From contig JAFGQU010000013.1 in NCBI GenBank assembly GCA_016935525.1, forward strand, positions 26,523 through 90,522: DNA of 64,000 nt, given 5' to 3'. Origin of the DNA: Candidatus Omnitrophota bacterium (GTDB lineage: Bacteria > Omnitrophota > Gorgyraeia > Duberdicusellales > 4484-171). Each line of letters starts with the position of its first letter. Position 1 is the stretch's first letter. Position numbers and translations under genes: made by a program. Shown piece by piece: positions 2,548 to 24,023 of this stretch. Under the pieces are notes generated by a model. It made no database searches. It worked only from the letters and a program-made list of their open reading frames with translations, and was not told where the DNA came from.

Positions 2548-2600
2548 TTAGTTCTAACTTATATAAAATTATCTTTGGTCTGTAACCGAAGAAGGGGATA

Positions 2601-3158: not shown

Positions 3159-3182
3159 CGGAAAGCCGAAAAAAACTATCCC

Positions 3183-3641: not shown

Positions 3642-3649
3642 GCACATGA

Positions 3650-3734: not shown

Positions 3735-3798
3735 TACAACCTTTTTTATTCGCTTCGCTCACTAAAAAAGATTAAGTCTTATTGAAAGGAGGACTTCA

Positions 3799-4959
3799 AT
3801 GCTTGTAGATTACGGTTTTACCGAAGAACAGAAAATGTTACGAGACCTATGCCGTCAGATCGCTGAAGAAAAGATCCGGCCGGTTTCACGCGAGCTCGAT
3901 GAAAAAGAAGAGTTCCCCTGGGATATCATCAAAGTGATGGCTCAGTCTGATCTGTTCGCGTTGTGTATTCCGGAGGCGTACGGCGGGATAGGCGGAAACC
4001 TTATGGACTTGGTGATCGCGACCGAAGAAATATCCCGGGTCGACGGCGGAGTCGCTACCTGTTATGCCGCGTCCTATTTGGGGATGTTCCCGATATTACT
4101 GTACGGGACCGAAGAACAAAAGAAAAAATATTTACCGGATATCGCCTCAGGTAAAAAACTCGCGGCATTCGGATTGACCGAACCGGAAGCCGGTTCTGAC
4201 GCGTCCGCGGTCAAGACGAGCGCGAAAAAACAAGGCGACAAATATATATTGAACGGAACGAAACATTTTATCACTAACGGCGGGGATGCCGAGGTATATA
4301 CGATCATTGCCGTGACGAATAAAGCTAAGGGCCCGCGGGGGATTTCGGCGTTTATTCTGGAAAAAGGGCAGGACGGGTTTACGTTCGGAAAAAAAGAGGA
4401 AAAACTGGGGATACGAGCGTCTTCGACCGGCGAACTTGTTTTTAATGACGTGGAAGTATCAAAAGATAACCTGTTAGGCGGTAAAGAAGGGCTGGGGTTT
4501 ATCGCGACGATGAAGACATTTGACCAGTCACGTCCCGGTGTCGCCGCACAAGCTGTCGGGATCGCGCAAGGGGCTCTGGAACTTGCGACCGCGTACGCTC
4601 ATACCCGGATACAGTTCGGTAAACCGATCACGTCGTTTCAGGGGATCCAGTGGATGCTCGCCGATATGGCGACAAAAGTCGAAGCCGCCCGCAGTCTGGT
4701 ATATGCTGCCGCGGCAATGGTCGATCGCGGGGTAAAAGATGTCGGCGGGGCAAGCGCGATGGCTAAGTTGTATGCGTCCGATATCGCCATGGAAGTCACG
4801 ACCGATGCCGTCCAGATCTACGGCGGGTACGGGTATATGCGTGACTATCCGGTTGAAAAGTTCATGCGTGACGCGAAGATCACTCAGATCTATGAAGGGA
4901 CTAACCAGATCCAGAAAAACATTATCGCTCTGAATCTCATCAAGAAATACACGAAATAA
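3799..4959 (+). CDS. acyl-CoA dehydrogenase (short/butyryl-chain type)
   Basis: 386 aa with canonical ACAD N-terminal, middle and C-terminal regions (GLTEPEAGSDA, YASDIAMEVTTDAVQIYGGYGY, FMRDAKITQIYEGTNQIQ). RBS AAAGGAGG upstream. Confidence 0.9.
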   Translation: MLVDYGFTEEQKMLRDLCRQIAEEKIRPVSRELDEKEEFPWDIIKVMAQSDLFALCIPEAYGGIGGNLMDLVIATEEISRVDGGVATCYAASYLGMFPILLYGTEEQKKKYLPDIASGKKLAAFGLTEPEAGSDASAVKTSAKKQGDKYILNGTKHFITNGGDAEVYTIIAVTNKAKGPRGISAFILEKGQDGFTFGKKEEKLGIRASSTGELVFNDVEVSKDNLLGGKEGLGFIATMKTFDQSRPGVAAQAVGIAQGALELATAYAHTRIQFGKPITSFQGIQWMLADMATKVEAARSLVYAAAAMVDRGVKDVGGASAMAKLYASDIAMEVTTDAVQIYGGYGYMRDYPVEKFMRDAKITQIYEGTNQIQKNIIALNLIKKYTK

Positions 4960-4984
4960 CAAACGATTATTTTGTATAGATGAT

Positions 4985-5018
4985 AAAAACCCTGGGGAAT
5001 CCCGGGGTTTTTGTTTTT
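4985..5018 (+). terminator. intrinsic terminator downstream of the acyl-CoA dehydrogenase gene
   Basis: AAAACCCTGGGGAATCCCGGGG hairpin followed by TTTTTGTTTTT. Confidence 0.55.
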
Positions 5019-5168
5019 AGAATGTCCGCAGAACTGTTCCTTTTTCTTGAATCACCGCAATCTTTTTTAATTTCTACGCAGACCCCCCCGAGCTTCAGAC
5101 CGGGATGAATACGAGAAATTATCCGCCTCAGTGCGGATGTCCCGCCGAACGAAGTTTGGCGGAACGTG

Positions 5169-5195
5169 AAAAAACCTCGGGCTTTTAGCCCGAGG
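5169..5195 (-). terminator. minus-strand intrinsic terminator with no annotated minus-strand gene feeding it
   Basis: Perfect 8-bp hairpin CCTCGGGC-TTTTA-GCCCGAGG with a T6 tract on the minus strand only (AAAAAA on plus at 5169-5174). Confidence 0.45.
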
Positions 5196-5257
5196 AGATT
5201 CACTCACTGGGATCAGGCGCCGGTGCGTTTGCGCGACAGCGCCAAACAAGAGGTTGC

Positions 5258-5286
5258 TTGACAAAAAAACGATTGTAGTATACATT
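5258..5286 (+). promoter_or_regulatory. candidate sigma70 promoter for aroK (TTGACA-17-TACATT)
   Basis: TTGACA at 5258-5263, 17-nt spacer, TACATT at 5281-5286, ATG at 5295. Confidence 0.4.
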
Positions 5287-5294
5287 TTGAAGTA

Positions 5295-5813
5295 ATGAAT
5301 AAAATAGATAAAAATATATATCTTATAGGATTTATGGGTACGGGAAAGACTACCGTTGCCAAAATCCTTGCCGATGACCTTGGCCGTGAGTTTCGGGAGA
5401 CCGACGAAGAGATCGAGAAATCGGAGCAGAAAAAGATAAAAGATATCTTTGCCGAACACGGCGAGAAGTATTTCCGTCAAAAAGAAAAAGCGGTGCTTAA
5501 AAGGTTGTCTGGCGAGCGAGGGCTCATCGTCAGTTGCGGGGGCGGTGTCGTGATCGACCCGGAGAACCGCGATCTGCTTAAAGTTACGGGGACAGTGGTC
5601 TGTCTTACGGCAAGCCCCGAAACTATTTATCAACGGACAAAAGGGCTGGACGATAGGCCGCTTTTAAATGTTTCCGATCCTTTGGGAAAGATCAAAGAAC
5701 TGCTTGTTTCCCGGGATGAGTATTATCGGGAAACCGGTCATCTTATTATCGATACCGATTCGTTGAACCCGAAAGACGTGGCGGTGAGGATCAAAGAGGG
5801 CATACCTGAATGA
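5295..5813 (+). CDS. aroK: shikimate kinase
   Basis: Walker A motif FMGTGKTTV and shikimate kinase core (VVSCGGGVV...). 172 aa. Confidence 0.85.
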   Translation: MNKIDKNIYLIGFMGTGKTTVAKILADDLGREFRETDEEIEKSEQKKIKDIFAEHGEKYFRQKEKAVLKRLSGERGLIVSCGGGVVIDPENRDLLKVTGTVVCLTASPETIYQRTKGLDDRPLLNVSDPLGKIKELLVSRDEYYRETGHLIIDTDSLNPKDVAVRIKEGIPE

Positions 5814-6871
5814 AAGAGTTAGCTATTCTTTTCAATAAAGCCGGTGTTTCGTTTACGAAGTTTCAGGAGGTTGCCGCCGGGAATAGAGACCTCCTACGTA
5901 CGGTTCAAGACAAAGATGCTTGGGGTGAATTCCCTTTCCTTACCGAAAAAGAGCGTGAACGTCTAAAAGGTCTACAAAGACAGGATTTCGTAAAAAACGA
6001 ATTACAGCGGGCCCAAGAATCGAACGTACAGATCATCGATTTTTATTCTGAAGAATACCCTCAATTATTACGGGAAATCCCGCATCCGCCGGTCGTCCTT
6101 TATGTGCAGGGTTCGCCGGCGGTGATTTCGAAACTGTGTATCGGGATCGTGGGGACGAGGTTACCTACGTTTTACGGGATAGAGATGGCCAAGAAATTTT
6201 CTTACGCTCTGGCGTCGTTAGGATTAATTGTTGTTTCGGGGCTTGCCCGGGGTATCGATACTGCCGCGCATCTGGGGGCGCTTGCCGGCGGGGATACTAT
6301 TGCGGTACTGGGGTGCGGATTGAACTATCGGTATCCTAAAGAGAATGAGAGTCTTGCCGCGCGTATTTCTGAACGGGGTGCGGTGATTTCCGAATTTGCT
6401 CTTGAAGAAAGGCCCCGCCGGGAATATTTTCCCCGGCGTAACCGTATTATCAGCGGTGTGTCACGCGGTGTGCTTGTGGTCCAGGCGGCCGACCGAAGCG
6501 GGGCGTTGATCACCGCCCGGTACGCGCTGGAACAGAACCGGGAAGTATTTGCTCTGCCGGGGGATGTGAATTCTTCAAAAAGCCGGGGAACCAATAAGCT
6601 TATTAAACAAGGCGCGAAACTTGTCGATTCAGTAGAAGATATATTACAAGAGTTACCTTATGATTTTTCCCGGCCGGGAAATGCCTTATCGTTATCCGAT
6701 GAAGAGAAAGGCGTGTTTGATATCATCACCGAAGGAGGTATCAGTCTTGAGGAGATGCTCTTGCGGTATCAACTCAAACGCGATATTATCAATAAAGTAG
6801 TGTTATCGTTACAGATAAAAGGGCTGATCAAAGAGGCTAAACCTTTATATTATGTAAAAGCACAACTTTAA
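5810..6871 (+). CDS. dprA: DNA processing protein DprA (Smf)
   Basis: Rossmann-like DprA core GIVGTR...VVSGLARGIDTAAHLGAL...GRSGALITARYALEQNREVFALPG. Overlaps the aroK stop by 4 nt. Confidence 0.9.
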   Translation: MKELAILFNKAGVSFTKFQEVAAGNRDLLRTVQDKDAWGEFPFLTEKERERLKGLQRQDFVKNELQRAQESNVQIIDFYSEEYPQLLREIPHPPVVLYVQGSPAVISKLCIGIVGTRLPTFYGIEMAKKFSYALASLGLIVVSGLARGIDTAAHLGALAGGDTIAVLGCGLNYRYPKENESLAARISERGAVISEFALEERPRREYFPRRNRIISGVSRGVLVVQAADRSGALITARYALEQNREVFALPGDVNSSKSRGTNKLIKQGAKLVDSVEDILQELPYDFSRPGNALSLSDEEKGVFDIITEGGISLEEMLLRYQLKRDIINKVVLSLQIKGLIKEAKPLYYVKAQL

Positions 6872-6987
6872 GGGGATATGGCAATAAACCAGTCGATAGT
6901 CGACGGTCTATGGTCGATAGTATAGAAAAATAAAAACTAAATGCCAAAGACTAACGACCAACGACTCTATACGGAGCTTTTAAGAAG

Positions 6988-8940
6988 ATGAGTGATTATT
7001 TAGTCATAGTCGAGTCTCCCACAAAAGTAAAGACGATTTCCAAGATCCTCGGGCCGGAATATGTCGTGCTTTCTTCTATGGGGCATGTCATCGATCTGCC
7101 GCCGAAGTCGCTCGCGGTAGACGTCGAAGACAGTTTTAATCCCCGTTATAAAGTCATTCCCGGAAAGAATAAGGTGCTTTCGTTATTGAAAGCTCAGGCA
7201 AAAGGTAAAAAAACGATCTATGTCGCGACCGACCCGGACCGGGAAGGAGAAGCGATCGGCTGGCATATCCGTAACGAATTGAAAAAAGACGCGAAAAGGT
7301 TTTTAAGAGTGAATTTCCATGAGATCACGCCGGAGGCGGTCAAAGACGCGTTTACCCATCCCCGCGATTTCGATATGAACCTTATTTACGCGCAGACCGC
7401 ACGCAGGGTGCTCGATAGGATCGTGGGATATCTGCTTTCCCCGTTATTATGGAAGAAGATCGTGCGGGGATTGTCCGCCGGACGAGTCCAGTCGGTTGCG
7501 CTTAAGTTCATCGTCGAGAGAGAAGAGGCGATCAACGCGTTTGTCCCTAAAACTACGTACGGGGTCGAAGCGTTACTTTTAAAAGGGACCACTGAATTTA
7601 CCGGCCGCCTGGTAAAATTCAGAAAAGAGAAGCCGCCGTTTGAAGAGAAATCGCACGCTGAGGAAGCTATCGCCTATGCGAGGGGTGAAAAATTCATCGT
7701 CGATAAGATCGAAAAGAAAGAAAGTAAACGAAAACCGCCGCCGCCGTTCATCACTTCCTCACTCCAGCAGGAGGCGTTTTATACATACCGGTTCTCTTCG
7801 CAGAAGACGATGCTTTTGGCTCAGAAACTGTATGAAGGGATCGAGATCGATAACCAGATGGTCGGGTTGATCACCTATATGCGTACCGATTCTTATAACG
7901 TAGCCGACCGGGCAAAAAAGGAAGTGAAAGGATATATCGAAAGTAATCACGGCAGCGAGTATTTGCCCGCCAAAGACTATGTCTATAAAGCCAAGAAAAG
8001 AGCCCAGGAAGCTCATGAAGCGATCCGGCCGACTACGGTCGCGCGTACTCCGAATTCGCTACGGGACTATCTTACCGGCGATCTGTTCAAGTTATACGAA
8101 CTGATCTGGCGCCGGTTTGTCTCTTCGTTTATGGCCGAGACGGTATATGAATCGACAAAAGTGACGATGAGCGTCGGGGAAGCCCAGTTTGCCAGTGACG
8201 GCCGACGGATCGTGTTTGACGGGTTTCAGAAGATATGGGAACGAGAAGAAGAACAACCGTTACCGGAATTTACCGAAGGCGAAGGAGTGCAGCTTAAAAA
8301 GATGGATTTTATCGAACATACCACCAAACCTCCCCCGCATTTTAACGATGCGTCGCTGGTAAAACTGCTTGAAGAAAAAGGTATCGGCCGGCCTTCTACT
8401 TACGCGCCGACTATCGCCACGCTTATCCGCCGTGATTACGTGAGCCGGGAGAAAGGGCATTTTGAACCGACCGAACTGGGCAGTAAAGTCTGTAAACTGT
8501 TACTGGAAAATTTTCCCGATATTATGGATGACCGGTTTACCGCCCAGATGGAAGACAAACTGGATGAGGTGGAAGCCGGCGGTATCGAGTGGAACCGGAT
8601 ATTAAAAGATTTTTATCCGTCATTTAAAGAAGCGGTAGATGAAGCCACCAAAAAAGTCCAGAAAGACGTCGAGTACACCCAGGAAATTTGTCCTCAATGC
8701 GGTAAGCCGCTTGTGGTAAAATGGTCTCGTCGGGGGCGGTTCTTAAGCTGTGCCGGATATCCGGGGTGTAAGTTCGCAAAAAGTATCACTACCGGCATCG
8801 AATGTCCCGGCTGTCATGACGGAGAGTTAATCGAAAGGAGAAATCGCAGAGGACAGCGGTTCTACGGATGTACCGCCTACCCTAAATGCACGTATACTTC
8901 TCGGACGCTTCCCGACCAAAACAATACAGAAGAGCAATGA
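6988..8940 (+). CDS. topA: DNA topoisomerase I
   Basis: Toprim N-terminus ([13 protein letters not shown]), topoisomerase IA core and three C-terminal Zn-ribbon motifs ([25 protein letters not shown]). The dprA-topA synteny supports the call. Confidence 0.9.
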
Positions 8941-9818
8941 TACCATTTTCCTATTATCGGGATAAGTTCCTTTCCTGCCTGGAAATCGAGAAGAATTATT
9001 CCCCGCATACCCTTCACAGCTATAAAAAAGATCTGGACGATTTCTCCGGGTTTCTCGAAGAACACTATAAAGGCGAAGATATCAAAAAAATAGATTATTT
9101 TATCCTGAGAAAATTTTTAAGTGTCCTTACTTCTCATCCGCTTAAAAAACGGAGTATTTCCCGCAAGATATCGACATTGAAAAGTTTTTTTAAGTTTCTG
9201 GTAAAGGAAGGCGTGACTAAAAATAACCCTTCGGCAAGCCTTATCTATCCTAAACTGGATAAACCGTTACCGAAATTCCTTACTGAACAGGAAGTCCTCA
9301 CGCTCCTGGGGAGCGTGAAAGAGGATACCCTGCTGGATTTGAGAGATAAGGCGATCCTTGAGTTTTTGTATTCTACCGGCGCCCGGGTCAGTGAAGCCGC
9401 GTCTCTAAAAAAAGAACAGATCGAGTTGATCGGCGGGATCGCGAAAGTAAAAGGGAAGGGCAGGAAAGAGCGGTTGCTCCCTCTGGGTGATCCGGCATTG
9501 GATGCGCTCAGGGCATATTTTAAAGCGCGTACCGATAGTAATCCTTATGCCTTTGTAAATAAAAGAGGCGGCACTTTGAGTGACCGTTCGTTTCGGCTCA
9601 TTGTCGATAAATATATAAAAAAGATCTCATCTTCCATGAAGATATCGCCGCATACGTTTCGTCATTCATTTGCTACCCATCTTTTAAATCGCGGGGCCGA
9701 TTTGCGGTGCGTACAGGAATTGTTAGGCCATTCCAGTATCGCGACGACTCAGGTGTATACTCATCTTACGATCGATACCCTAAAAAAAGTCTATGATAAA
9801 GCTCATCCGCGCGCCTGA
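8937..9818 (+). CDS. xerC: tyrosine site-specific recombinase XerC/XerD family
   Basis: N-terminal SAM-like domain and C-terminal catalytic domain ([31 protein letters not shown]). Start ATG at 8937 overlaps the topA stop (ATGA). dprA-topA-xerC order as in Bacillus. Confidence 0.8.
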
Positions 9819-9820
9819 TC

Positions 9821-11116
9821 ATGATTAAAAGACGTATTTTTTCATTTTTTTATGACAGTATATTTTTTCTGGGAGTAATCGTATATCTGCCGGTTTATTT
9901 TAAACGGAAAAAGATCACCTGGTCGGCGTTTAAAGAGAAATGTGCGGTGTACCCGGAAAAAGCCAGATCGATCGCGCCGAAAAACAGGAAAGTCGTCTGG
10001 ATCCAGGTGGTAAGTGTGGGCGAGGTGACGTTGATCCGGTCGTTAGTCGAATATCTTAAAGCTCAGGGCGAAAGTGACGTGGTGATTTCGGTGACCACAT
10101 TGACCGGGCGTAAGGTCGCCGAGAAGATGTATCCGGGGAACCTGGTGGTCTATTTGCCTTTTGATATCAGTTTCCTGATCCGCCGGGCGATACGGTTCAT
10201 TAAACCGGCGGTATTCGTCGCGATCGAGACCGAGATCTGGCCGAACCTGTATCTTCAACTTAAAAGGGAAAATGTCCCGGTCATCATTTTAAACGGCCGG
10301 ATATCGGAAAGAGCTTTTGCGCAATACCGTAAAATAAAGTTTTTCATGAAAAAGATATTGAACCTGGCTGAGTGTATCGGAGTACAAAACCAGTTTTATA
10401 AAGAGCGGTTTCTCGAGTTAGGGGCGGACATCGAGAAAACCATTATTACCGGCAACCTTAAGTTCAGTAATTACTCTATCGATGAGAAAAAGTACGCGGC
10501 ATTTGTGGAAAAATATTATCCTTACCTGAAAAACGACGATTCGCTGCTTTTTTTAGCGGCAAGTACCCACGCGCCTGAGGAGACCTATGCGCTTGATTGT
10601 TATAAAACACTTATTGTCCGTTATCCGAATCTGCGGTTGATGGTAGTGCCCCGGCATATCGAACGGGTTGACGAAATAGAGCGTATTTTTGCCGCGGCCG
10701 GGTTCCGTACGCTTAAACTGAGCGAAGGATTTAAGGGCGGAACATCGTCACAGGATGTGTTTGTCGTCGACACCGTGGGTGATCTTCTGGCTTGTTATAG
10801 TATGGCTGATTTCTGTTTTGTGGGAGGGAGTCTTGCCGATTACGGCGGACATAATATTCTTGAACCGCTGTATTTCGCTAAACCGACTCTGTTCGGCCCG
10901 TGTATGAGTAATTTTAAAGAGATCGAACAGACGGTCCTTGATCACCAGGCGGGTATTCAGGTCGCACATAGCGAAGATCTCCGGGAGAGACTTGAAGAAT
11001 TGATACAGGATGTATCGTATCGCCAGAAACTTTCAGGTAACGCCCATGCGATTTTTACCGAAGGGCAGGAAACTTTAAAAAACAGTGTCGCATGTATTCG
11101 TCGTTGGTTGTATTAA
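9821..11116 (+). CDS. waaA: 3-deoxy-D-manno-octulosonic acid (Kdo) transferase
   Basis: GT30 signature WIQVVSVGEV near the N-terminus. 431 aa. Confidence 0.85.
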   Translation: MIKRRIFSFFYDSIFFLGVIVYLPVYFKRKKITWSAFKEKCAVYPEKARSIAPKNRKVVWIQVVSVGEVTLIRSLVEYLKAQGESDVVISVTTLTGRKVAEKMYPGNLVVYLPFDISFLIRRAIRFIKPAVFVAIETEIWPNLYLQLKRENVPVIILNGRISERAFAQYRKIKFFMKKILNLAECIGVQNQFYKERFLELGADIEKTIITGNLKFSNYSIDEKKYAAFVEKYYPYLKNDDSLLFLAASTHAPEETYALDCYKTLIVRYPNLRLMVVPRHIERVDEIERIFAAAGFRTLKLSEGFKGGTSSQDVFVVDTVGDLLACYSMADFCFVGGSLADYGGHNILEPLYFAKPTLFGPCMSNFKEIEQTVLDHQAGIQVAHSEDLRERLEELIQDVSYRQKLSGNAHAIFTEGQETLKNSVACIRRWLY

Positions 11117-12114
11117 AACAAAAATATTTAGGGCTTATCCAGGAGAAAAACCGTACTCCTCTCGGTCAGGCGTTATTTTTGGTATTGGTCGGGCTTTCCG
11201 GTATTTTCTGGATATTGGTCAAGGCGCGCGGCCTTTTTTATGAAAAAGAAGTGTGTAAGACGTATCAGTCCGAAAAGAGGATCGTCAGTATCGGGAACAT
11301 ATCCTGGGGCGGGACCGGTAAGACCAGTTTAACTCTGTATCTTTATAAAACACTGCAGGTCCCGGTAAGGGCGTGTATTATTACCAAAGGGTATGCTAAA
11401 GACGAATATGCTCTTATCCGGCGTAGTACAAAAAGTGTATACGATTCCCGTAACCGGATACGGATGATCCGGCGTCTCGAAAAAGAGTATGACCTTTTCC
11501 TTCTCGATGACGCGTTCCAATATCGCGGATTGGCTCGGGACCTCGATATTGTCCTTATCAATAAACAGGAGATCATTACCAGACCCCGGCTTATACCGGC
11601 CGGGCCGTTACGGGAACCGTTCAGCAGTCTTAAGCGTGCCGATATCGTCATCGTATCGTATTGCAGTAAAGAGGATTTAGCCGGTATTTCTCCTCGTATA
11701 GCGCGGATCAATAAAAATGCGGCGGTGTTCGCCGCCGATTATAAAGTGACCGGTCTATTGGACCATAACTTGAAGAGAGTACCTCAGGAATATTTGAAAG
11801 GTAAAAAACTGGGAGTACTTACCGCGATAGGATATCCTCAAGGATTTTTAGATAAAATACACGGGATCTCTTATGAGCCGTCCCGGGTATCGGTATATCC
11901 CGATCATTATGAGTTTAGCGGCGAACATCTGCGGGAAATCGAACGGGAATTTTTAAAAGACGGTATCGAAAATGTCTTGATCACGTATAAGGATTATTAT
12001 CATACCGATTTTTCCCGTAAAAGGCTTAACTATTTTATCGTGCAGGTGGAACTTATTATTCATGACGAGGAGAAGTTTTTAGAAGTCGTCCATAACCGTA
12101 TAAGATCTTTATAA
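11092..12114 (+). CDS. lpxK: tetraacyldisaccharide 4'-kinase
   Basis: P-loop IVSIGNISWGGTGKTS typical of LpxK. Overlaps the waaA 3' end by 25 nt. Confidence 0.85.
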   Translation: MYSSLVVLKQKYLGLIQEKNRTPLGQALFLVLVGLSGIFWILVKARGLFYEKEVCKTYQSEKRIVSIGNISWGGTGKTSLTLYLYKTLQVPVRACIITKGYAKDEYALIRRSTKSVYDSRNRIRMIRRLEKEYDLFLLDDAFQYRGLARDLDIVLINKQEIITRPRLIPAGPLREPFSSLKRADIVIVSYCSKEDLAGISPRIARINKNAAVFAADYKVTGLLDHNLKRVPQEYLKGKKLGVLTAIGYPQGFLDKIHGISYEPSRVSVYPDHYEFSGEHLREIEREFLKDGIENVLITYKDYYHTDFSRKRLNYFIVQVELIIHDEEKFLEVVHNRIRSL

Positions 12115-12119
12115 TCGCG

Positions 12120-13931
12120 ATGGCCAGGCTATTGTTGAGATTAATAAATGTATTTGTGCATCTTTTACCGCGTCCGGCGGCCCGGGCGTTAGGCGGGATG
12201 ATCGGCTTTTCCTTTTACCGTAACCGCCGCAGACGCCGGAACGCGTTTATCAATATCAAACAGGCGTTTCCCGAAAAAAGTAATCGTGAGCTTTTCTCGA
12301 TCATCCGCCGCAGTTTTATCTCTTTCGGCGTGAGTATTATCGAGACGTTCCTGGTCGAACAGATGAAAGAAGAAGTAACCCGGCAATGGTCGGAAAAAAT
12401 GACTCAAACCGGGGAGATATTCGTCGGGCTCCATCAGGGGAACTGGGAATCGTATCATGCGGATTTCGCGCGTACCGCGCCGCTGGCATTACTGGCAAAA
12501 GCGCAGAGATATTCAGTGCTTGACGATTATTTGAACGATCTGCGCAAGACCCATCTTGTTACGGTGTGTTTTTCCCTGAAAGAGGCGATCGCGGCTCTTA
12601 AAAAAAATATGTGGGTCGGGCTGGTCATCGATCACGGCGCGGAAAAAAACGCCCGGTTCGTCGATTTTTTCGGCCAGCTGGTGCCTACTCCGGGAGGAGC
12701 GGTGTCGCTCGCGAAAAAATTCGATAAACGGATTTTCCCGACGTTCGGGTATCGTAAGGGGAAAGAGCAGATATTCGTCATCGATGATCCCCTGGATTGC
12801 CGGGATCTTTCCGAAGAGGAAGCCTTACGTAAGATCAATGAAATGTATGAAGAGTTTTTAAGGGCGCATCCTTACGAGTATATGTGGTGGTTTAAACGGT
12901 TCAAACGGAAAAAGAACCGTAGTATCCTTATTTTGAGCGATGGTAAAGCCGGGCATCTTAAACAGTCTTTCGCGTTGAGTAAAAAAGTGGAGGAAGCCGG
13001 GTACCGGGTGGCTACCGAGACCGTAGAGGTAGCGTATCGTCACCGGTGGTCCCGGGCGGGCCTGGATATCGTTGCTTGTTTCAGTTCGCCCTGGGCAGTA
13101 GGTAGAACAAGAGCGTTGCGGTTCTTTCTTAAAAAGGAAATATGGGAGAAGTTAGAGAAGAGGTTTTACGATATTGTCATCTCTACCGGTTCAAGCGTGG
13201 CCGCGGCGAATGTGTTGTATGCCCGGTCACTGGGAGCAAAATCGTGCGTGATCTTAAGACCGAATGTTCCGTTAGTTAAATTCGATACAGCGCTCGTGCC
13301 CGAGCATGACGGGATAAAAGGGAACAATGTGATCACGACTAAAGGGGCGTTAGCCTATTTCGAACACTGGCAGGAACATGTGTTACGCGGGAAGGAGCAT
13401 TTCCGGTTTACCGAAGAGAAAAAGATCGCGGTATGTATCGGGGGGGCGCTCAATGACCACGGGCAATATCGTGAACGTCTCGGCATGTTCCTTGCGGCGT
13501 TAAAAGAATACGCTCTTAAACATCAGTACAGAATCGTCCTCACCACGTCGAGACGTACCGAAAGGCTGGTTGATGAGATCATCGAACGTGAACTTTCCTC
13601 ATTCCCCAATACTGAAGCGCTCCTCCTGGTAAGTCGCGAGAATCATCCGTTTGTAGTGCCGGCGTTTCTCGCGGTAAGTGAAATAGTCTGTGTGAGTGCC
13701 GAGAGCGTATCGATGATCTCCGAAAGCCTCTCCCAGGATAAAACAACGGCAGCGGTGTTTCTTGAAGACCTGAAATCGAAACCGCATCGGCGGTTTCTGG
13801 CATCACTGGAGAAAGAATATCTGAATTTTTTAAAGTATCCTTATGGCCAGTTTTCGTTCCGGCACCCGACGAGGTCGCTTAGGGCGCAGAACGAAGAACG
13901 GCTGGCGGAGGCGGTAACGCGGTTGTTATGA
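12120..13931 (+). CDS. fusion protein: LpxL/HtrB-family lipid A late acyltransferase (N-terminal) with ELM1/DUF1022-type domain (C-terminal)
   Basis: Residues 1-~265 look like lauroyl/myristoyl acyltransferases. From ~270 the sequence ILILSDGKAGHLKQSFAL... matches the bacterial ELM1 (mitochondrial-fission-ELM1-like) family start (KxxxLxDGKxGHxNQ). Confidence 0.65.
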   Translation: MARLLLRLINVFVHLLPRPAARALGGMIGFSFYRNRRRRRNAFINIKQAFPEKSNRELFSIIRRSFISFGVSIIETFLVEQMKEEVTRQWSEKMTQTGEIFVGLHQGNWESYHADFARTAPLALLAKAQRYSVLDDYLNDLRKTHLVTVCFSLKEAIAALKKNMWVGLVIDHGAEKNARFVDFFGQLVPTPGGAVSLAKKFDKRIFPTFGYRKGKEQIFVIDDPLDCRDLSEEEALRKINEMYEEFLRAHPYEYMWWFKRFKRKKNRSILILSDGKAGHLKQSFALSKKVEEAGYRVATETVEVAYRHRWSRAGLDIVACFSSPWAVGRTRALRFFLKKEIWEKLEKRFYDIVISTGSSVAAANVLYARSLGAKSCVILRPNVPLVKFDTALVPEHDGIKGNNVITTKGALAYFEHWQEHVLRGKEHFRFTEEKKIAVCIGGALNDHGQYRERLGMFLAALKEYALKHQYRIVLTTSRRTERLVDEIIERELSSFPNTEALLLVSRENHPFVVPAFLAVSEIVCVSAESVSMISESLSQDKTTAAVFLEDLKSKPHRRFLASLEKEYLNFLKYPYGQFSFRHPTRSLRAQNEERLAEAVTRLL

Positions 13932-16098: not shown

Positions 16099-17157
16099 AT
16101 GAATATATTAATCTTAACTACTCATCTGGACCCGGGCGGGATCACCCGTTATGCCTTAAATTTAAGTGAAGAGTTATCCCGAGATCACCGGGTATGGGTC
16201 GCCTCCTCCGGCGGCTCCTGGCAGGATAGATTTTCCCGCTCCGGCGTAGGGTTTAAATGGATCCCGATTAAGACCAAATCGATACTGGATCCTAAGATCA
16301 TAGCCTGTTTTTTTAATCTTCTTCCGTTTTTGGTAAAAAATAAGATCGACGTTATCTGCGCCAATACCCGGGTTACTCAGTTTCTGGCTTACCTTATGTA
16401 TCGGGCCGGCGGGATCCCTTATGTTTCGGTATATCATGGTTTCTATAAAGCCCGGTATGAACGTAAAGTCTTAAAATTTCAGGGGGCCCGTACAATCGCG
16501 GTCAGTGAATCGGTAAAAAGACACCTGACCGAAGACCTGGGTGTCCCCTCAGAACAGATCCGGGTGGTCTATAACGGAATCGATCCGGCCCGGTTTGCGC
16601 CTCGTTCTAAAAAGCAGGATAGCCGGGGGAGAATACGGTTAGGTATTTTAGGCCGGATCTCGGCGGAAAAAGGGCACCTGTTGGTGGTCGAGACGGTAAA
16701 AGAACTTATCGCTGACGGCGTGAACGTGTCGTTATATATTGCCGGTGAAGGGAAATTGAAAAAGAAAGTCACCGAATACGTGACGAGGTGCGGATTGGAT
16801 GCGTATGTGGAGTTCGTTTCTGCCGACGGCGAGCGGTTCCTGGATATGATCGACATCCTGATCGTCGCTTCATCCAAAGAAGGGTTTGGCTATATTATTT
16901 TAGAGGCGTTTGCGAAAGAGGTGCCGGTAGTCGCCTACGCGGTAGGCGGTATCAAAGAGATCGTGAGCGACGGACAAAACGGATTGCTTTTCTGGCAGTA
17001 CAATGCCGGGAGTCTCAAAGAGAAGCTGGTAGAGATCATCAACGATTACGAATTACAACAACAGTTGGTAATAAACGGGAAAGGAAGTCTGAGCCGGTTC
17101 AGTTTAGAGCAGATGGCCAGAGAAACCGCCCGAGTGTTAGGGGAAACTTTAAGATGA
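16099..17157 (+). CDS. glycosyltransferase family 4
   Basis: GT4 fold with EGFGYIILEAFAKEVPVVAYAVGG (E-x7-E). 352 aa. Confidence 0.8.
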   Translation: MNILILTTHLDPGGITRYALNLSEELSRDHRVWVASSGGSWQDRFSRSGVGFKWIPIKTKSILDPKIIACFFNLLPFLVKNKIDVICANTRVTQFLAYLMYRAGGIPYVSVYHGFYKARYERKVLKFQGARTIAVSESVKRHLTEDLGVPSEQIRVVYNGIDPARFAPRSKKQDSRGRIRLGILGRISAEKGHLLVVETVKELIADGVNVSLYIAGEGKLKKKVTEYVTRCGLDAYVEFVSADGERFLDMIDILIVASSKEGFGYIILEAFAKEVPVVAYAVGGIKEIVSDGQNGLLFWQYNAGSLKEKLVEIINDYELQQQLVINGKGSLSRFSLEQMARETARVLGETLR

Positions 17158-17924
17158 TAAAAAGAATATTTTTTGCAGTCTTTGCGGTTTTGGCTGTTTT
17201 ATTTTTAGGGTTTTATATCTGGCTGTATCCGCAATACGAGGTGCCGGTCTTTATGTACCATTCGTTGAATGAAGCCCGGTTAGGTGAATATTCCGTCGTG
17301 CCGCTTGAGACTTTTCGTGCCCAGATGGAATATATCAAAAAGAACGGATATACGGTGTTGCGATTGGAAGAGTACTGCCGCCGGTTAAAAGAAGGCTTAA
17401 GTGTACCGCGGCATAGCGTGGTGATCACTTTTGACGACGGGCATCGTGATAATACGCGTGCGGTCGAGGTGCTGGACAGCCTGGATATCCCGGCAACCAT
17501 ATTCCTCATAGTCGATAAGATCGGAACCGAGGCCTATCTTACTAAAGAACAGGTCGTAGCATTTCTTCAAAATACCCCGGTCGATATCGGTTCGCACACG
17601 ATGAGCCATGCCTATTTACCGGACTTGGTCGATAGCGAAGTTTTCTATCAGATCAATGAATCTAAACATACCTTAATCGAAGAGTTCGGCGTGCCGGTTG
17701 AAACGCTCACCTATCCGGTAGGAGGGTTTAACGAAACCGTATTAAAAGAAGTAGAACATGCCGGGTACCTGTGCGCGTGCACTACGAACCGGGGATTTTC
17801 CAAAGAGAAACACCTGTTCGCGTTACGCCGGATCAAGATCACCGATCGTGACCGGGGGATAGCGCTATGGGCGAAACTGAGCGGGTATTATAACGTATTT
17901 AAAAAACCTAAAAATCCTTACTAA
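17154..17924 (+). CDS. polysaccharide deacetylase (CE4/NodB family), membrane-anchored
   Basis: Start ATG at 17154 overlaps the upstream TGA. N-terminal TM helix, then CE4 motifs VVITFDDGHRD and IGSHTMSHAYL. Confidence 0.75.
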   Translation: MIKRIFFAVFAVLAVLFLGFYIWLYPQYEVPVFMYHSLNEARLGEYSVVPLETFRAQMEYIKKNGYTVLRLEEYCRRLKEGLSVPRHSVVITFDDGHRDNTRAVEVLDSLDIPATIFLIVDKIGTEAYLTKEQVVAFLQNTPVDIGSHTMSHAYLPDLVDSEVFYQINESKHTLIEEFGVPVETLTYPVGGFNETVLKEVEHAGYLCACTTNRGFSKEKHLFALRRIKITDRDRGIALWAKLSGYYNVFKKPKNPY

Positions 17925-18103: not shown

Positions 18104-19117
18104 ATGGAACGAGTACTCGTCGTCAACGTAAACTGGCTGGGTGACTGTATCATGACTTTGCCGGCATTCAGTGCCCTGAAGAAAGAATATCCCCACGTAT
18201 ATACCGCGGTAATGGCGCCGGGGCGGGTCGCCGAGATATTTGAAAAAGATCCTTCTATCGATGAGGTCCTGGTGTTTGACGAACGAACCACGCATCGGAG
18301 CCTGCCGGCGAAACTGCGGTTTATCCGTGCATTAAAAGAAAAGAGATTTGATACGGCGATATGTATCCATCGTTCGTGTACCCGTATATTGATCTGTCGG
18401 CTTGCCGGTATTCCCCGGAGGATCGGGTATCACCGCCGCAAGACTTCCTGGCTGATCAATCATAAAGTAAAACCGCCGGCAGGTACCGGGCATCGTCAGG
18501 ATTATTATTTGTGTCTTTTCGAAGCGGCCGCAATACCGGTAAAGACGAGGATTCCGCAGGTATTCATCGACGATGATGTGCGTCATCGTATGTATTACCG
18601 TCTGCAGAGGCCTGAGCATACGCACGCTCATCTTATCGGGGTACAGGTCTCGGCAAATTGGGACCAGAAACGCTGGCCGGCACAATCGTATGCCGAGTTG
18701 TGCGACCGGCTGATCAGCCGGTACTCCTGCGCGATATTCTTTGTCGGAACGCAAAAAGACGCCCCCGCGGTAAGCGCGGTCACCGAAAAAATGAAACGTA
18801 AGGATTTTTACGATTTTTGCGGACAGACGACTCTTTCCGAACTTGCCGCGGTTATGGAGAATTTTGATTTGTTTATATCCAACGATTCCGGGCCGGCGCA
18901 TCTTGCCGCGGCCGTCGGTATTCATACGCTTGTTCTTTTCGGTCCGACCGATCCGGAGGTCACCTCTCCGCGCGGTAAGTATGTCCATATCGTCAAAAGC
19001 GATGTGCCCTGCGTGATACCCTGTTATAAGACCGACTGTAAGGATAATTTCTGTATGAGCGGGATATCGGTCGATGAAGTGATAGAGACCGTACAGTACA
19101 TATTCGACAATGAATAA
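18104..19117 (+). CDS. LPS heptosyltransferase (GT9)
   Basis: VLVVNVNWLGDCIMTLPAFSALKKEYP N-terminus and C-terminal GPAHLAAAVG...LFGPTDP GT9 motifs. Confidence 0.8.
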   Translation: MERVLVVNVNWLGDCIMTLPAFSALKKEYPHVYTAVMAPGRVAEIFEKDPSIDEVLVFDERTTHRSLPAKLRFIRALKEKRFDTAICIHRSCTRILICRLAGIPRRIGYHRRKTSWLINHKVKPPAGTGHRQDYYLCLFEAAAIPVKTRIPQVFIDDDVRHRMYYRLQRPEHTHAHLIGVQVSANWDQKRWPAQSYAELCDRLISRYSCAIFFVGTQKDAPAVSAVTEKMKRKDFYDFCGQTTLSELAAVMENFDLFISNDSGPAHLAAAVGIHTLVLFGPTDPEVTSPRGKYVHIVKSDVPCVIPCYKTDCKDNFCMSGISVDEVIETVQYIFDNE

Positions 19118-20042
19118 AGGGATTTTAATAAATTTTCCTACGAATATCGGCGACGTGATCCTCTCTCTGCCGCTTCTAGACCGGATCAGGAGCCTTTATC
19201 CGGACCGTCCGATTACGGCGATCGTATCGTCCCGTACCCGCGAATTTTTAGAAGCGCATACGTTCATCGATGAAGTGATCGTGTTTGATAAACATTGGCC
19301 GGGTAAAACCAAATTGCAATTCGCTTTCCGGTTACGGAATAAATTCGATATCGTGGTCGATTTAAAGAATTCGCTTCTTCCTTTTGTGATCGCGCCACGG
19401 TGGCGGACCCGGTTTATCCGGTTTTTTAAACCTACCCAGCATATTACTCACCGTTATCTATCGCTGATCTCAAAACTGGGGTTGCCGGCGGCGACCGTAC
19501 GCGGAGACGTGCGCATCGCGGCCGAAAAAAAGGCCCGCTGGGATGGGTTGAATCTGTCCGGCGCGGTAGGCGTGGGCTGTTCTTCACAGTTTTATCTGAA
19601 ACAGTATCCTTACGAAAACTTAAAACAAGTGATCGAAAGATTGCACGGCCAATATCCGGTCGTGATCTTGGGCGAAGAAAAAGAACGCGGGTTCTACCGT
19701 GATATCCTTGGCCTGCCGGGGGTGAGAGACCTTGTCGGGAAGACTACGTTGACCGATGTGTTTTATATTTTAAAAAATTTCTGCCGGGTTATGGTCGCGG
19801 TCGATTCCAGCCTCATGCATATGGCCGGATACCTTAATGTGCCGGTCATCGGGTTGTTCGGCCCTACCGCGCCGGGCCGGTCCTATCCGCTTTCGGAAAA
19901 ATCGGTAATATTACAGAACACCCATATCATGTGTGTCCCCTGTGACGGTACATTATGTGAGCATGAGAATATATGTATGAATATCGATCCCGAAACGGTA
20001 ATCGGGACGGTAAGAGGTATTATCGATGCTGAAGGAGCCTGA
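19110..20042 (+). CDS. LPS heptosyltransferase (GT9) paralogue
   Basis: ILINFPTNIGDVILSLPLLDRIRSLYP N-terminus, LMHMAGYLNVPVIGLFGPT C-terminal motif. Confidence 0.75.
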   Translation: MNKGILINFPTNIGDVILSLPLLDRIRSLYPDRPITAIVSSRTREFLEAHTFIDEVIVFDKHWPGKTKLQFAFRLRNKFDIVVDLKNSLLPFVIAPRWRTRFIRFFKPTQHITHRYLSLISKLGLPAATVRGDVRIAAEKKARWDGLNLSGAVGVGCSSQFYLKQYPYENLKQVIERLHGQYPVVILGEEKERGFYRDILGLPGVRDLVGKTTLTDVFYILKNFCRVMVAVDSSLMHMAGYLNVPVIGLFGPTAPGRSYPLSEKSVILQNTHIMCVPCDGTLCEHENICMNIDPETVIGTVRGIIDAEGA

Positions 20043-21069
20043 AAAGATCCTCGTGGTACGTACCGACCGGATGGGGGACGTGATCCTGTCTACTCCGGTG
20101 ATTTCGGCGTTACGCCGGCGATATCCCCACGCGTATATCGCGTTTATGTGCCGGCCGTATACCCGGCCGTTACTGGAAGGCAATCCCGGTCTAAACGAAG
20201 TGATCGAGTGTGATAAATCCGGATCTCATAAGGGATTCTGGGGGACAGTACGGTTTATCCGCGCCTTGCGGCGTACACGGTTCGATGTAGCGATCATTCT
20301 TCATCCTACGGTCCGGGTCCATCTGGTCACTTTTTTTGCCGGGATCCCCCGGCGTATCGGGTGGGATAAAAAGAATAGTTTTCTGCTTACCAGAAAAATC
20401 CCTCATCTTAAACAGCAAGGGGAAAAACATGAGTCTCAATATACTTTGGATATTTTACGGGCTCTTGGTATCGAGACGCGAGAAATAAAACCGTTTGTGC
20501 CGGTGAGTGAGGCGGCCCGGATGAACATAGCCAAAAGGCTTCAGGATAAAGGAATAAAAGTAAACGAACCATTCATTGTCGTTCATCCTTCGGCGTCATG
20601 CCCTTCTAAACGCTGGCCACAAGAACATTTCGTGACGTTAGTCAATAAGATCAAAACCGGATTAAGGCTGCCGGTGGTACTGGTGACTTCCCGTGATGAG
20701 AAAGAATTCGGCGGTAAAGTCGCTCAGGTCCCTGAGGTGATCGATCTGAGAGGCGCACTGGAGCTTTCCGAACTTATCGCTCTTATCGAAAAGGCCGCGC
20801 TGTTTATTTCCAACGATTCCGGGCCGGTGCATATCGCAGCAAGCCTGGATGTGCCGGTGATCTCTATCTTCGGCCGGAGTGATCCGGGACTTTCTCCGGA
20901 ACGTTGGAAGCCGCTCGGTGAGCATTCGGTGTTTGTCCATAAAGATGTAGGCTGTCCGGTCTGTTTCGCTCACGATTGCCGAAAAGGATTTTTATGTTTA
21001 GAGTCCATTACTCCGCAGGAAATATTTGCTCTGGTTGAGAAAATCCTTGCCAAACATAAAAAAATCTGA
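20026..21069 (+). CDS. LPS heptosyltransferase (GT9) paralogue
   Basis: ILVVRTDRMGDVILSTPVISALRRRYP and SNDSGPVHIAASLDVPVISIFGRSDP. Confidence 0.8.
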   Translation: MLKEPEKILVVRTDRMGDVILSTPVISALRRRYPHAYIAFMCRPYTRPLLEGNPGLNEVIECDKSGSHKGFWGTVRFIRALRRTRFDVAIILHPTVRVHLVTFFAGIPRRIGWDKKNSFLLTRKIPHLKQQGEKHESQYTLDILRALGIETREIKPFVPVSEAARMNIAKRLQDKGIKVNEPFIVVHPSASCPSKRWPQEHFVTLVNKIKTGLRLPVVLVTSRDEKEFGGKVAQVPEVIDLRGALELSELIALIEKAALFISNDSGPVHIAASLDVPVISIFGRSDPGLSPERWKPLGEHSVFVHKDVGCPVCFAHDCRKGFLCLESITPQEIFALVEKILAKHKKI

Positions 21070-22153: not shown

Positions 22154-23188
22154 ATGACTCAATACGTAATTCTTAATAAAACCGATCTTGACGAATTTAT
22201 TTCCCGTCTTGCTCAGATTAAAAAGACCGTCGCTCCCGTAAAACGGGGAGTGAAGAATTATGCGTTCGAAGAAGTCACCTCCGGAAAAAACGTCGCCGTA
22301 AAATATATACCTACTATTCTGCCTCCGAAAAAGTATTTCCTGCCTCAGACCGAAACGTTACAGCAGTATGATAAGAGTAAGAAGACCTGGAACGCGGTAA
22401 TGGAGTTTCAGGAAATGATCATATTCGGGGTCCATACCTGCGACCTTGCCGGTATCCAATGTCTTAATATGGCCTTTTCCGATAAACCCAAAGATATCAA
22501 TTATCTTGCCCGTAAGAACAGAATATTGATCATCGGCCTTGAATGTAATGATTATTGCGATGAATACGCGAGCTGTAAGGTGATGGATAACCATATGCCC
22601 AACGGAGGATATGACCTTTTCTTCACCGAACTCGATGACTTTTTTATGGTCCATATCAATACGCTCGAAGGTGAAGATTTGATCGAGAAGACCGGTTTGT
22701 TCAAAGAAGCGAAAGAAGAGCATAAGAAAGCCCTGAAAGCGATGAGGGAAGAGAAAAGGAAACGGTTTAAGGATGAAGTCAATGTGACCCATAACCAGTT
22801 AAAACCGCTATTCGATAAATCGTTCGAAGCGCCGGTGTGGCAGAGTCTCGAGGCGCGCTGTGTTTCCTGCGGAAATTGTACGAATGTCTGTCCTACCTGT
22901 TATTGTTTTGATATCGAAGATGAAATAGACCTGAATCTTACTACGGGCGTGAGAAAACGCCGGTGGGATTCCTGTCAAAACGAACCGTTTGCTCAAGTAG
23001 CCGGCGGTGAGAATTTCCGGGAAGCCCGCGGCGAACGCCAGCGTCACCGGTACCTGCGTAAATTCAAATATCCCGTAGATAAATACAGCCGGTATTTCTG
23101 TACCGGGTGCGGACGATGTTCCCGGACCTGTATGGCTAAGATTAATTTAAAAGAGACCATAAACGAGTTAGCCCAAGGAGCAAAATGA
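22154..23188 (+). CDS. [NiFe] hydrogenase (group 3b-like, sulfhydrogenase-type) beta subunit, 4Fe-4S protein
   Basis: C-terminal ferredoxin-like Cys clusters (CVSCGNCTNVCPTCYC, CTGCGRCSRTC). Position and architecture match HydB of the tetrameric sulfhydrogenase. Confidence 0.7.
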   Translation: MTQYVILNKTDLDEFISRLAQIKKTVAPVKRGVKNYAFEEVTSGKNVAVKYIPTILPPKKYFLPQTETLQQYDKSKKTWNAVMEFQEMIIFGVHTCDLAGIQCLNMAFSDKPKDINYLARKNRILIIGLECNDYCDEYASCKVMDNHMPNGGYDLFFTELDDFFMVHINTLEGEDLIEKTGLFKEAKEEHKKALKAMREEKRKRFKDEVNVTHNQLKPLFDKSFEAPVWQSLEARCVSCGNCTNVCPTCYCFDIEDEIDLNLTTGVRKRRWDSCQNEPFAQVAGGENFREARGERQRHRYLRKFKYPVDKYSRYFCTGCGRCSRTCMAKINLKETINELAQGAK

Positions 23189-24021: not shown

Positions 24022-24023
24022 TC

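Follow-up and report, generated by a model that had tools for sequence, protein, structure and literature searches.

Fusion of a late acyltransferase with an ELM1/KdoT-type glycosyltransferase domain in the lipopolysaccharide core cluster of Omnitrophota: a candidate bifunctional enzyme

Introduction

Why does a gene in the lipopolysaccharide (LPS) core cluster of a bacterium encode, in a single reading frame, both a lipid A acyltransferase and a domain that is named after a mitochondrial fission factor? This question is raised by a stretch of 64,000 nucleotides (nt) from Candidatus Omnitrophota bacterium (assembly GCA_016935525.1, contig JAFGQU010000013.1, positions 26,523 to 90,522 of the forward strand), which is called the window in the following. 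The gene is an open reading frame (ORF) of 603 amino acids (aa). An earlier inspection of the letters alone, here called the sequence-only reading, had described it as an acyltransferase of the LpxL/HtrB family joined to an ELM1-type domain, and had seen in this fusion a functional clue for a family that was biochemically uncharacterised in bacteria. Here, we observe that the fusion is real and conserved across Omnitrophota and that its second half is, as judged by alignment, homologous to the experimentally validated lineage of KdoT, a transferase for 3-deoxy-D-manno-oct-2-ulosonic acid (Kdo).

The premise of an uncharacterised family no longer holds, as KdoT of Acinetobacter baumannii was linked to a third Kdo in 2024 (PMC10936431) and described as a purified enzyme in 2025 (PMC12856342). 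Because this activity has already been published, the fusion is not the first clue to the function of the family; it corroborates and extends a known one. GtrOC1, encoded by the first gene of the Acinetobacter outer-core locus beside ilvE, was classified as a putative glycosyltransferase of the Mito_fiss_Elm1 family (Kenyon and Hall, PMC4172580). Deletion of the gene A1S_2903 in A. baumannii results in a Kdo2-lipid A chemotype, while its co-expression with LpsB, an enzyme of glycosyltransferase family 4 (GT4), adds KdoIII and N-acetylglucosaminuronic acid (GlcNAcA), also in Escherichia coli; in vivo, KdoT depends on GnaT/LpsB (PMC10936431). In December 2025, purified A1S_2903, renamed KdoT, was reported to move Kdo from its cytidine monophosphate-activated form (CMP-Kdo) to Kdo2-lipid IVA. 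It is inactive on lipid IVA, with activity shown on Kdo2-lipid IVA only, prefers a tetra-acylated substrate and needs the positive charge of R180 within the conserved motif SRRT, while single alanine substitutions of four candidate catalytic bases fail to abolish its function (PMC12856342). Other Acinetobacter homologues, that of A. nosocomialis included, complement a kdoT deletion in A. baumannii; with a Rickettsia homologue, core banding is restored and the outer-membrane barrier is rescued only in part (PMC12856342). The third Kdo of A. baumannii sits at O5 of KdoI (PMC12856342). The ELM1 protein of plants is a non-enzymatic adaptor that recruits a dynamin-related protein to mitochondria (PMC10936431).

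Results

The fusion is real and conserved across Omnitrophota

In a Pfam search, PF03279 (Lip_A_acyltrans) spans aa 11-263 of the ORF (E 2e-33, 116.3 bits against a cut-off of 22.3) and PF06258 (Mito_fiss_Elm1) aa 277-566 (E 4.9e-39, 134.7 bits against a cut-off of 27). Both matches lie far above the cut-offs, including that of the C-terminal half, and the two-domain assignment of the sequence-only reading is thereby borne out. The peptide ILILSDGKAGHLKQSF quoted there is found in the ORF, where SDGKAGH occupies aa 273-279.

A word-indexed search returned more than 120 independent homologues of about 600 aa with both Pfam domains and 38-57% identity, drawn from NCBI, JGI, ENA and Logan assemblies, and confirmed the single frame. 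All of those bearing an organism name belong to Candidatus Omnitrophica/Omnitrophota; one of them, P0001, is identical to the window protein and is located on a 161-kb Candidatus Omnitrophica contig. An exhaustive HMMER search gave 224 matches at E <= 1e-30 among 1.84 billion cluster representatives (50% identity). In about 140 of the 150 best of these, which have two domains and a length of 575-694 aa, one alignment stretch runs across both domains. Among them is a more remote set of fusions, about 650 aa long and 28-34% identical, in which the named members once more come from Omnitrophota. Since both the independent homologues and the great majority of the best representatives carry the two domains, the ORF is not an artefact: the LpxL::ELM1 fusion (the double colon marks domains joined in one protein) is real and conserved across Omnitrophota.

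Three close homologues of 384-400 aa (P0121, P0123, P0247) look like standalone proteins. Given contigs of about 2 kb or matches to only part of the query, truncated gene calls are the most likely explanation, rather than unfused Omnitrophota genes. Two metagenome-assembled genomes labelled 'uncultured Planctomycetia bacterium' (loci L007 and L010) carry a waaA-lpxK-LpxL::ELM1-GT4::GT9 cluster of the Omnitrophota type (GT9, glycosyltransferase family 9); either the taxonomic label is imprecise, or the architecture extends beyond Omnitrophota within the Planctomycetes-Verrucomicrobia-Chlamydiae (PVC) group.

Database entries name the Omnitrophota fusions 'ELM1/GtrOC1 family putative glycosyltransferase' (NCBI) or 'lauroyl/myristoyl acyltransferase/mitochondrial fission protein ELM1'. 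Both halves are thus from known families, and what is new is the domain architecture. No paper describing LpxL::ELM1 fusions, LpxK::ELM1 fusions or the pairing of ELM1 with GT4 genes across phyla was found in the literature searched, which left most subscription journals outside.

At the junction of the two domains, the C-terminal motif of the acyltransferase directly abuts the first beta-strand of the glycosyltransferase fold. Among 124 fusion proteins, the junction residues W256 and K262 are invariant, and Y254, K259, R260, F261, K264 and L272 are each at least 90% conserved; past the junction, D274, G278 and H279 also belong to this nearly invariant stretch. A full-length AlphaFold2 (AF2) model, built from 124 sequences, has a mean predicted local distance difference test (pLDDT) of 94.6 and a predicted template modelling score (pTM) of 0.90. 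It places the strand E266-273 immediately after the end of the acyltransferase and has no segments of low pLDDT. Because of these values and the lack of a low-confidence linker, the model implies a compact two-domain protein with a confidently predicted, fixed mutual arrangement of the domains.

Both domains retain the residues that define their families

Alignments show that the family-defining residues are kept in both predicted domains. In the acyltransferase domain, H105 of the HX4E dyad is invariant and E110 at least 90% conserved among the 124 fusions, and the pattern HxGxWE is present in 108 of 120 homologues. Its best NCBIfam matches are lipid A lauroyl, myristoyl or palmitoleoyl transferases; all 16 NCBIfam acyltransferase matches stay under their cut-offs, the best being NF006270 with 77.7 bits against 248. 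In a Foldseek comparison, the top matches are structures of A. baumannii LpxM (5KNK/5KN7; E 3.9e-12 and 7.5e-12, TMt 0.63-0.67), with PatA next. The domain has two N-terminal helices, after which comes an Arg-rich stretch. On the Kyte-Doolittle scale, all N-terminal windows of 19 residues fall below transmembrane-like hydrophobicity, and the highest windows are internal Rossmann strands.

For the C-terminal domain, a BLASTP comparison with the KdoT orthologue of A. nosocomialis gave 26% identity over 285 aa (E 5e-22). This orthologue (locus L078, 9995-10879) has 294 aa, is encoded directly after ilvE, and its numbering matches the published KdoT residues D8, H13, H109, D110, R179 and R180. Homologues from A. 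seifertii match at an E value of about 1.6e-11 in a database of 5.8 billion proteins. S477 and R479 of the SRRT motif are invariant among the 124 fusions, R478 and T480 at least 90% conserved, and the rare variants SFRT and SART retain the second Arg, the one that is needed in KdoT. When 66 diverse ELM1 proteins of the stand-alone type are aligned with the window domain, T-T-S-R-R-T is invariant, as are M267 and E270 of the motif S.SM..E, and the set also shares the motifs SDGKxGH, GS and P..FD..PEHD.

H279 (nt 12954-12956), the equivalent of KdoT H13, does not vary among the 124 fusions, and its conservation in the 66 ELM1 proteins is at least 90%. As H13 was stated not to be conserved outside Acinetobacter (PMC12856342), there is a small discrepancy between this observation and the published statement.

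An AF2 model of the C-terminal domain alone (pLDDT 94.2) predicts a GT-B fold of two Rossmann-like domains. Its Foldseek matches in the PDB are all of the GT-B type, among them MurG, WaaF (1psw), a polysialyltransferase with bound cytidine diphosphate (5wcn) and the WecB/MnaA epimerases, at template modelling (TM) scores of about 0.5. A profile search of PDB sequences found no solved structure of the ELM1 family, the best match, to gephyrin at E 0.7, being a chance one. The domain was also considered as a disguised LpxB (GT19) or WaaA (GT30); Pfam gives no such match at E <= 0.1, neither does PF04413 (Glycos_transf_N) match the fusion ORF at this threshold, and a separate waaA gene is present. 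Identity with the eukaryotic mitochondrial fission factor ELM1 was set aside likewise: the gene is bacterial and part of an LPS operon, the domain is joined to a lipid A enzyme, and the Pfam family is all that is shared.

The gene is embedded in an LPS core cluster

The coordinates of all features are collected in Table 1. The fusion gene follows waaA and lpxK, which overlap by 25 nt, at a distance of 5 nt from the end of lpxK; upstream of waaA lie dprA, topA and a recombinase gene of the xerC/D type. Downstream, the cluster continues with a GT4::GT9 fusion gene, whose start codon overlaps the stop codon of the LpxL::ELM1 ORF, and with further GT4 and GT9 genes. The position after waaA-lpxK and before heptosyltransferases, as given by the sequence-only reading, is in good agreement with these assignments, two of the three GT9 genes passing the heptosyltransferase II cut-off. 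NCBIfam yielded generic GT4 matches only, under their cut-offs, for the GT4 half of the downstream gene. About 370 nt of the longest ORF of the polysaccharide deacetylase are shared with the GT4 gene before it. Since the deacetylase domain begins at aa 207 and the homologue in locus L001 has 262 aa, translation probably starts near 17150. At position 21069 the LPS block comes to an end, and a [NiFe]-hydrogenase cluster and purine and fatty-acid genes follow.

Table 1. Features of the fusion gene, of its cluster in the window and of related gene arrangements in other genomes
Feature	Position	Strand	Basis or remark
waaA (Kdo transferase, GT30)	9821..11116	+	PF04413, E 1.7e-51; best NCBIfam matches are lipid IV(A) Kdo transferases
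lpxK (tetraacyldisaccharide 4'-kinase)	11092..12114	+	PF02606; TIGR00682, 152.7 bits against a cut-off of 92
LpxL-type acyltransferase :: ELM1/KdoT-type GT-B fusion ORF	12120..13931	+	ATG start, 603 aa, no internal stops
LpxL/LpxM-family late acyltransferase domain, aa 1-265	12120..12914	+	PF03279
HX4E dyad, H105-Q-G-N-W-E110	12432..12449	+	sequence position; conservation in fusions
Domain junction, aa 254-272, YEYMWWFKRFKRKKNRSIL	12879..12935	+	LpxL C-terminal W..KRFK motif abuts first GT-B beta-strand; no flexible linker
ELM1/GtrOC1/KdoT-type GT-B domain, aa 266-603	12915..13931	+	PF06258
SDGKAGH motif; D274, H279 = KdoT D8, H13	12936..12956	+	alignment; H279 invariant in 124 fusions
PEHDG motif; H396, D397 = KdoT H109, D110	13299..13313	+	alignment to Acinetobacter; both invariant in 124 fusions
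SRRT motif, S477 R478 R479 T480; R478, R479 = KdoT R179, R180	13548..13559	+	alignment
ESVSMISE motif, donor-binding half (family-wide S.SM..E)	13701..13724	+	S529, M532, E535 invariant in 124 fusions
GT4::GT9 fusion gene, 684 aa	13928..15982	+	ATG overlaps stop codon of LpxL::ELM1 ORF (ATGA)
Second GT4 gene	16099..17157	+	core-oligosaccharide cluster
Polysaccharide deacetylase	16788..17924	+	longest ORF, GTG start
Three GT9 genes	18104..19117, 19110..20042, 20026..21069	+	two of three pass heptosyltransferase II cut-off
LpxK::ELM1 fusion, locus L019	9032-11077		681 aa, complete, Pfam-confirmed
LpxK::ELM1 fusion, locus L001	16-1599		P0135
Unfused adjacent lpxL / ELM1, locus L012	8995-9912 / 9980-11047		gap 67 nt
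Unfused adjacent lpxL / ELM1, locus L013	3503-4390 / 4400-5479		gap 9 nt

Among the window ORFs, scanned up to 55.6 kb, no other lpx or kds genes were found save a PagL-like one: at 2601-3158 (+), 7 kb upstream of the cluster, a protein of 185 aa resembles the outer-membrane lipid A 3-O-deacylase PagL (PF09411, E 2.4e-19). The GT4::GT9 fusion occurs in all loci of the Omnitrophota type that reach past the ELM1 gene (L001 at 1740-3878, L019 at 11074-13221, L005-L011 and L014), with L009 ending earlier. Two consecutive fusion genes thus amount to four LPS enzymes.

Further observations concern the window as a whole. All convincing ORFs of the 64 kb lie on the plus strand, those of at least 150 aa on the minus strand being nested inside longer plus-strand genes, which makes an unusually long co-oriented stretch. 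Just past the [NiFe]-hydrogenase cluster (22154-26563), an ORF of 432 aa at 26913-28211 (+) has a radical SAM domain preceded by a HupF/HypC hydrogenase-maturation domain at the N-terminus; another radical SAM/BATS protein is encoded at 28988-30490. At 43183-44244 (+), an ORF of 353 aa contains a Sua5/YciO/YrdC and a low-molecular-weight phosphotyrosine phosphatase domain.

ELM1 genes are linked to lipid A and Kdo genes in several phyla

A profile scan for the ELM1 domain, with one genome per GTDB species, provided 84 loci with flanks of up to 10 kb. The flanks were searched with the LPS proteins of the window and with the Kdo-synthesis proteins of a Dethiosulfovibrio locus. ELM1 genes turn out to be linked to lpxL, lpxK, waaA and kds genes and to one type of GT4 gene in several phyla, and the role in lipid A or inner-core modification proposed by the sequence-only reading is strengthened by this linkage.

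The LpxL::ELM1 fusion is present in eight of the 84 loci, and wherever flanks are available, waaA-lpxK precede it and GT4::GT9 follows, as in the window. Two further loci, L001 and L019, show the same synteny, xerC/D-waaA-[fusion]-GT4::GT9 with GT9 genes after it, where the fusion is LpxK::ELM1 without an acyltransferase domain; within the fetched flanks, no lpxL was found in either. In L012 and L013, from genomes outside the fusion group (one labelled Poribacteria), lpxL and ELM1 are adjacent and unfused, presumably the kind of arrangement that preceded the fusion.

In Synergistota/Fretibacterium (L003 at 1696-10192; L025, L030, L053, L062 and L083), ELM1 closes the kdsA-kdsD-kdsB operon of CMP-Kdo synthesis, often with a GT4 gene next; in L003 and L025, whose flanks extend further in the upstream direction, the order is kdsA-kdsD-(waaA)-kdsB-ELM1. 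Natroniella and a metagenome-assembled genome (MAG) of Nitrospirae exhibit waaA(-lpxK)...ELM1-GT4. A lipid A or Kdo gene (waaA, lpxK, lpxL or kdsA/B/D) lies in the flanks of 12 of the 38 stand-alone loci that are not labelled Poribacteria.

A GT4 gene directly follows ELM1 in 16 of the 84 loci. GT4 proteins encoded beside or near ELM1 were compared with the two GT4 sequences of the window. Those of Natroniella, the Nitrospirae MAG, Marinobacterium and Verrucomicrobiota reach 138-198 bits with the GT4 half of the GT4::GT9 protein, and always clearly less with the second GT4. Since they best resemble the GT4 half immediately downstream, ELM1 and GT4 form a conserved pair (ELM1→GT4), which was seen in Omnitrophota, Synergistota, Halanaerobiales (Natroniella), the Nitrospirae MAG, Verrucomicrobiota and Proteobacteria. 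By analogy, this pair brings to mind that KdoT depends on GnaT/LpsB in vivo. An apparent GT4+ELM1 fusion in L060 was set aside, as it is a stop-to-stop frame on a contig rich in overlapping spurious ORFs.

Discussion

A putative bifunctional enzyme at the Kdo2-lipid IVA stage

On the evidence of sequence and gene order, we consider it probable that the protein is a bifunctional enzyme acting on Kdo2-lipid IVA: one half would add a secondary acyl chain, the other an additional sugar of the inner core, with Kdo as the most probable one. In the proposed pathway, which would start on the inner face of the cytoplasmic membrane, LpxK would provide lipid IVA and WaaA would convert it to Kdo(2)-lipid IVA. 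The N-terminal LpxL/LpxM-type domain, with H105 and E110, would transfer a secondary acyl chain from an acyl carrier, and the C-terminal KdoT-type GT-B domain would attach one more sugar, most likely Kdo donated by CMP-Kdo, to the Kdo region. The sugar after that may be supplied by the GT4 half of the downstream gene, which is translationally coupled to the fusion gene, and the GT9 enzymes may in turn extend the core. The donor sugar, the acceptor position and linkage, the order of the reactions and the hand-over of substrate between the domains are what we infer in this scheme. The pairing of LpxL with KdoT would make biochemical sense because KdoT prefers the tetra-acylated intermediate, which is the substrate of LpxL. 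Moreover, since the same domain is independently fused to LpxL and to LpxK, and unfused lpxL-ELM1 pairs exist as well, the arrangements indicate an enzyme that would work on intermediates of the lipid IVA stage. This suggests that late acylation and completion of the inner core are coordinated.

Known systems offer partial precedents for each element. With LpxL, LpxM and LpxP (e.g., E. coli LpxL and A. baumannii LpxM, 5KN7), the N-terminal domain shares PF03279, the HX4E dyad, a C-terminal W..RFK motif and, as closest structure, LpxM, as well as the genomic setting beside lpxK and waaA. The window protein differs from them in scoring far below the NCBIfam cut-offs, in that no strongly hydrophobic N-terminal transmembrane segment was found, and in carrying a whole glycosyltransferase at its C-terminus. 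With KdoT (A1S_2903, GtrOC1), the C-terminal domain has in common PF06258, the GT-B fold, the equivalents of D8, H13, H109, D110, R179 and R180, and the SRRT motif, and both are encoded in an LPS core cluster with a polysaccharide deacetylase and GT4 enzymes. However, KdoT is a stand-alone protein of 294 aa, whereas the window domain comprises about 338 aa, is fused to a late acyltransferase and is a putative Kdo transferase. Acinetobacter lipooligosaccharide (LOS) is not known to contain heptose, whereas GT9 genes of the window cluster exceed a heptosyltransferase cut-off.

The succession of an ELM1-type enzyme and a GT4 enzyme corresponds to the KdoT-GnaT (LpsB, GT4) step. In the window, the GT4 is encoded by the next, translationally coupled gene, and the adjacency recurs in Synergistota, Natroniella, the Nitrospirae MAG and Marinobacterium. 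In Acinetobacter, by contrast, the two genes are unlinked, and the window GT4 is itself fused to GT9; its GT4 half is a candidate analogue of GnaT/LpsB. Multifunctional WaaA enzymes (GT30) are comparable in that both routes exceed the minimal number of Kdo residues on lipid IVA, but the window has a separate WaaA, and the ELM1 domain belongs to a different GT-B family without PF04413. The LpxK::ELM1 fusions (L019; P0135) share synteny and ELM1 subfamily with the LpxL::ELM1 proteins and differ in the partner, which is the lipid A 4'-kinase and not a late acyltransferase.

Which sugar is transferred?

The most serious alternative keeps the bifunctional enzyme and replaces its donor: the ELM1-type domain would move a sugar other than Kdo (a hexose, a hexuronic acid or another ulosonic acid), and the family would be a general GT-B family with varied donors. 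We judge this unlikely, yet it has to be taken seriously, and a number of observations speak for it or, more generally, against the assignment preferred here. Further Mito_fiss_Elm1 glycosyltransferases, GtrOC14, GtrOC19a-c and GtrOC22, occur in the variable outer-core loci of Acinetobacter (PMC4172580). The binding of the Kdo carboxylate by SRRT was proposed from modelling and mutagenesis, not from a solved structure (PMC12856342). In Marinobacterium sedimentorum (L054, 9875-15907), two ELM1 paralogues are interleaved with GT4 genes and a polysaccharide deacetylase gene, so the family can diversify inside one core locus; given these paralogues and the additional GtrOC proteins, the donor may not be uniform across the family. 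The identity of the window domain to a validated KdoT is as low as 26%, and the domain is of a long form (about 338 aa) with an extra segment of about 30 residues in the acceptor-binding half, which the 294-aa Acinetobacter enzymes lack. O5 of KdoI is the usual heptosyltransferase I position, yet the third Kdo of A. baumannii occupies it and the window cluster has four GT9 domains, whose heptosyltransferase-type members might require that very position; for this reason, the regiochemistry or the sugar may differ from A. baumannii. As every NCBIfam cut-off was missed, the N-terminal half is to be regarded, by its sequence, as a divergent member of the PF03279 family without assignment to the LpxL, LpxM or LpxP sub-type. 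Finally, a survey of the kind that the sequence-only reading had suggested, for LPS genes around bacterial ELM1 homologues, finds such neighbours at the 12 stand-alone loci mentioned above, while of the loci labelled Poribacteria 35 of 36 have no LPS neighbour in their flanks (<=10 kb) and a single one does.

Against a donor other than Kdo stands the SRRT motif, which like the remaining motifs is invariant from Acinetobacter KdoT to the fusions. The long-form genes of Synergistota, which are more closely related to the window domain than KdoT is, lie inside the kdsA-kdsD-kdsB-ELM1 operon of CMP-Kdo synthesis. The fusions with LpxL and LpxK and the adjacency to waaA put the reaction at the Kdo-lipid IVA stage, and even the distant Rickettsia homologue restores core extension in the A. 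baumannii kdoT deletion, with the barrier rescued partly. Transfer of Kdo by a bifunctional protein is therefore the assignment that we prefer.

Less probable by a clear distance is a role as transferase of the second Kdo. WaaA would then be monofunctional, the LpxL domain would need KdoII, and the fusion would tie acylation to the completion of the Kdo disaccharide. The state of the Kdo region does matter to late acyltransferases: LpxL of E. coli requires Kdo2, and secondary acylation in Vibrio cholerae reportedly requires phosphorylated Kdo (Hankins and Trent 2009, cited in PMC12856342). The LpxL fusion and its LpxK::ELM1 variant also place the domain very early in the pathway. However, purified KdoT is inactive on lipid IVA and was active on Kdo2-lipid IVA only (PMC12856342), and there is no sequence sign of a monofunctional WaaA, although the valency of WaaA cannot be read from sequence.

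More improbable still is a catalytically dead C-terminal domain that would serve the acyltransferase as scaffold, membrane anchor or regulator, in the manner of the plant adaptor (PMC10936431). The four alanine mutants of candidate bases in KdoT that are still functional (PMC12856342) would fit such a view. In contrast, the family-invariant residues, including the Arg equivalent to R180, are kept across proteins that are 28-57% identical, and the purified bacterial KdoT is an enzyme (PMC12856342). An erroneous join of adjacent lpxL and ELM1 genes by sequencing or assembly, for which the unfused pairs in L012 and L013 might be quoted, is ruled out for practical purposes by hundreds of independent NCBI, JGI, ENA and Logan assemblies with the same single frame of about 600 aa at 28-57% identity, by the near-invariant junction, and by a compact model without disordered linker.

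Implications

A stronger version of the bifunctional reading can be formulated, which we put forward as tentative and would not expect to hold in full: acylation and addition of the extra Kdo would be obligatorily linked on one and the same molecule of Kdo2-lipid IVA in a coupled two-site enzyme, and ELM1→GT4 would be a widespread, possibly ancient alternative to the addition of Kdo by WaaA alone.

The work does not reveal a new enzyme class: each half falls into a known family, and the biochemical function of the second has been on record since 2025. The fusion rather represents an independent corroboration of the KdoT assignment and suggests a phylogenetically broad 'split' Kdo pathway, which has so far been demonstrated by experiment in Acinetobacter alone, plus one Rickettsia homologue by complementation. 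If the proposed function is true, several hundred Omnitrophota proteins that now appear as 'mitochondrial fission ELM1 family protein' would receive a concrete name. The KdoT-type split pathway would then reach at least half a dozen diderm phyla, most of them uncultured, and the 'non-canonical' route of Acinetobacter would be widespread among bacteria instead of peculiar to one genus.

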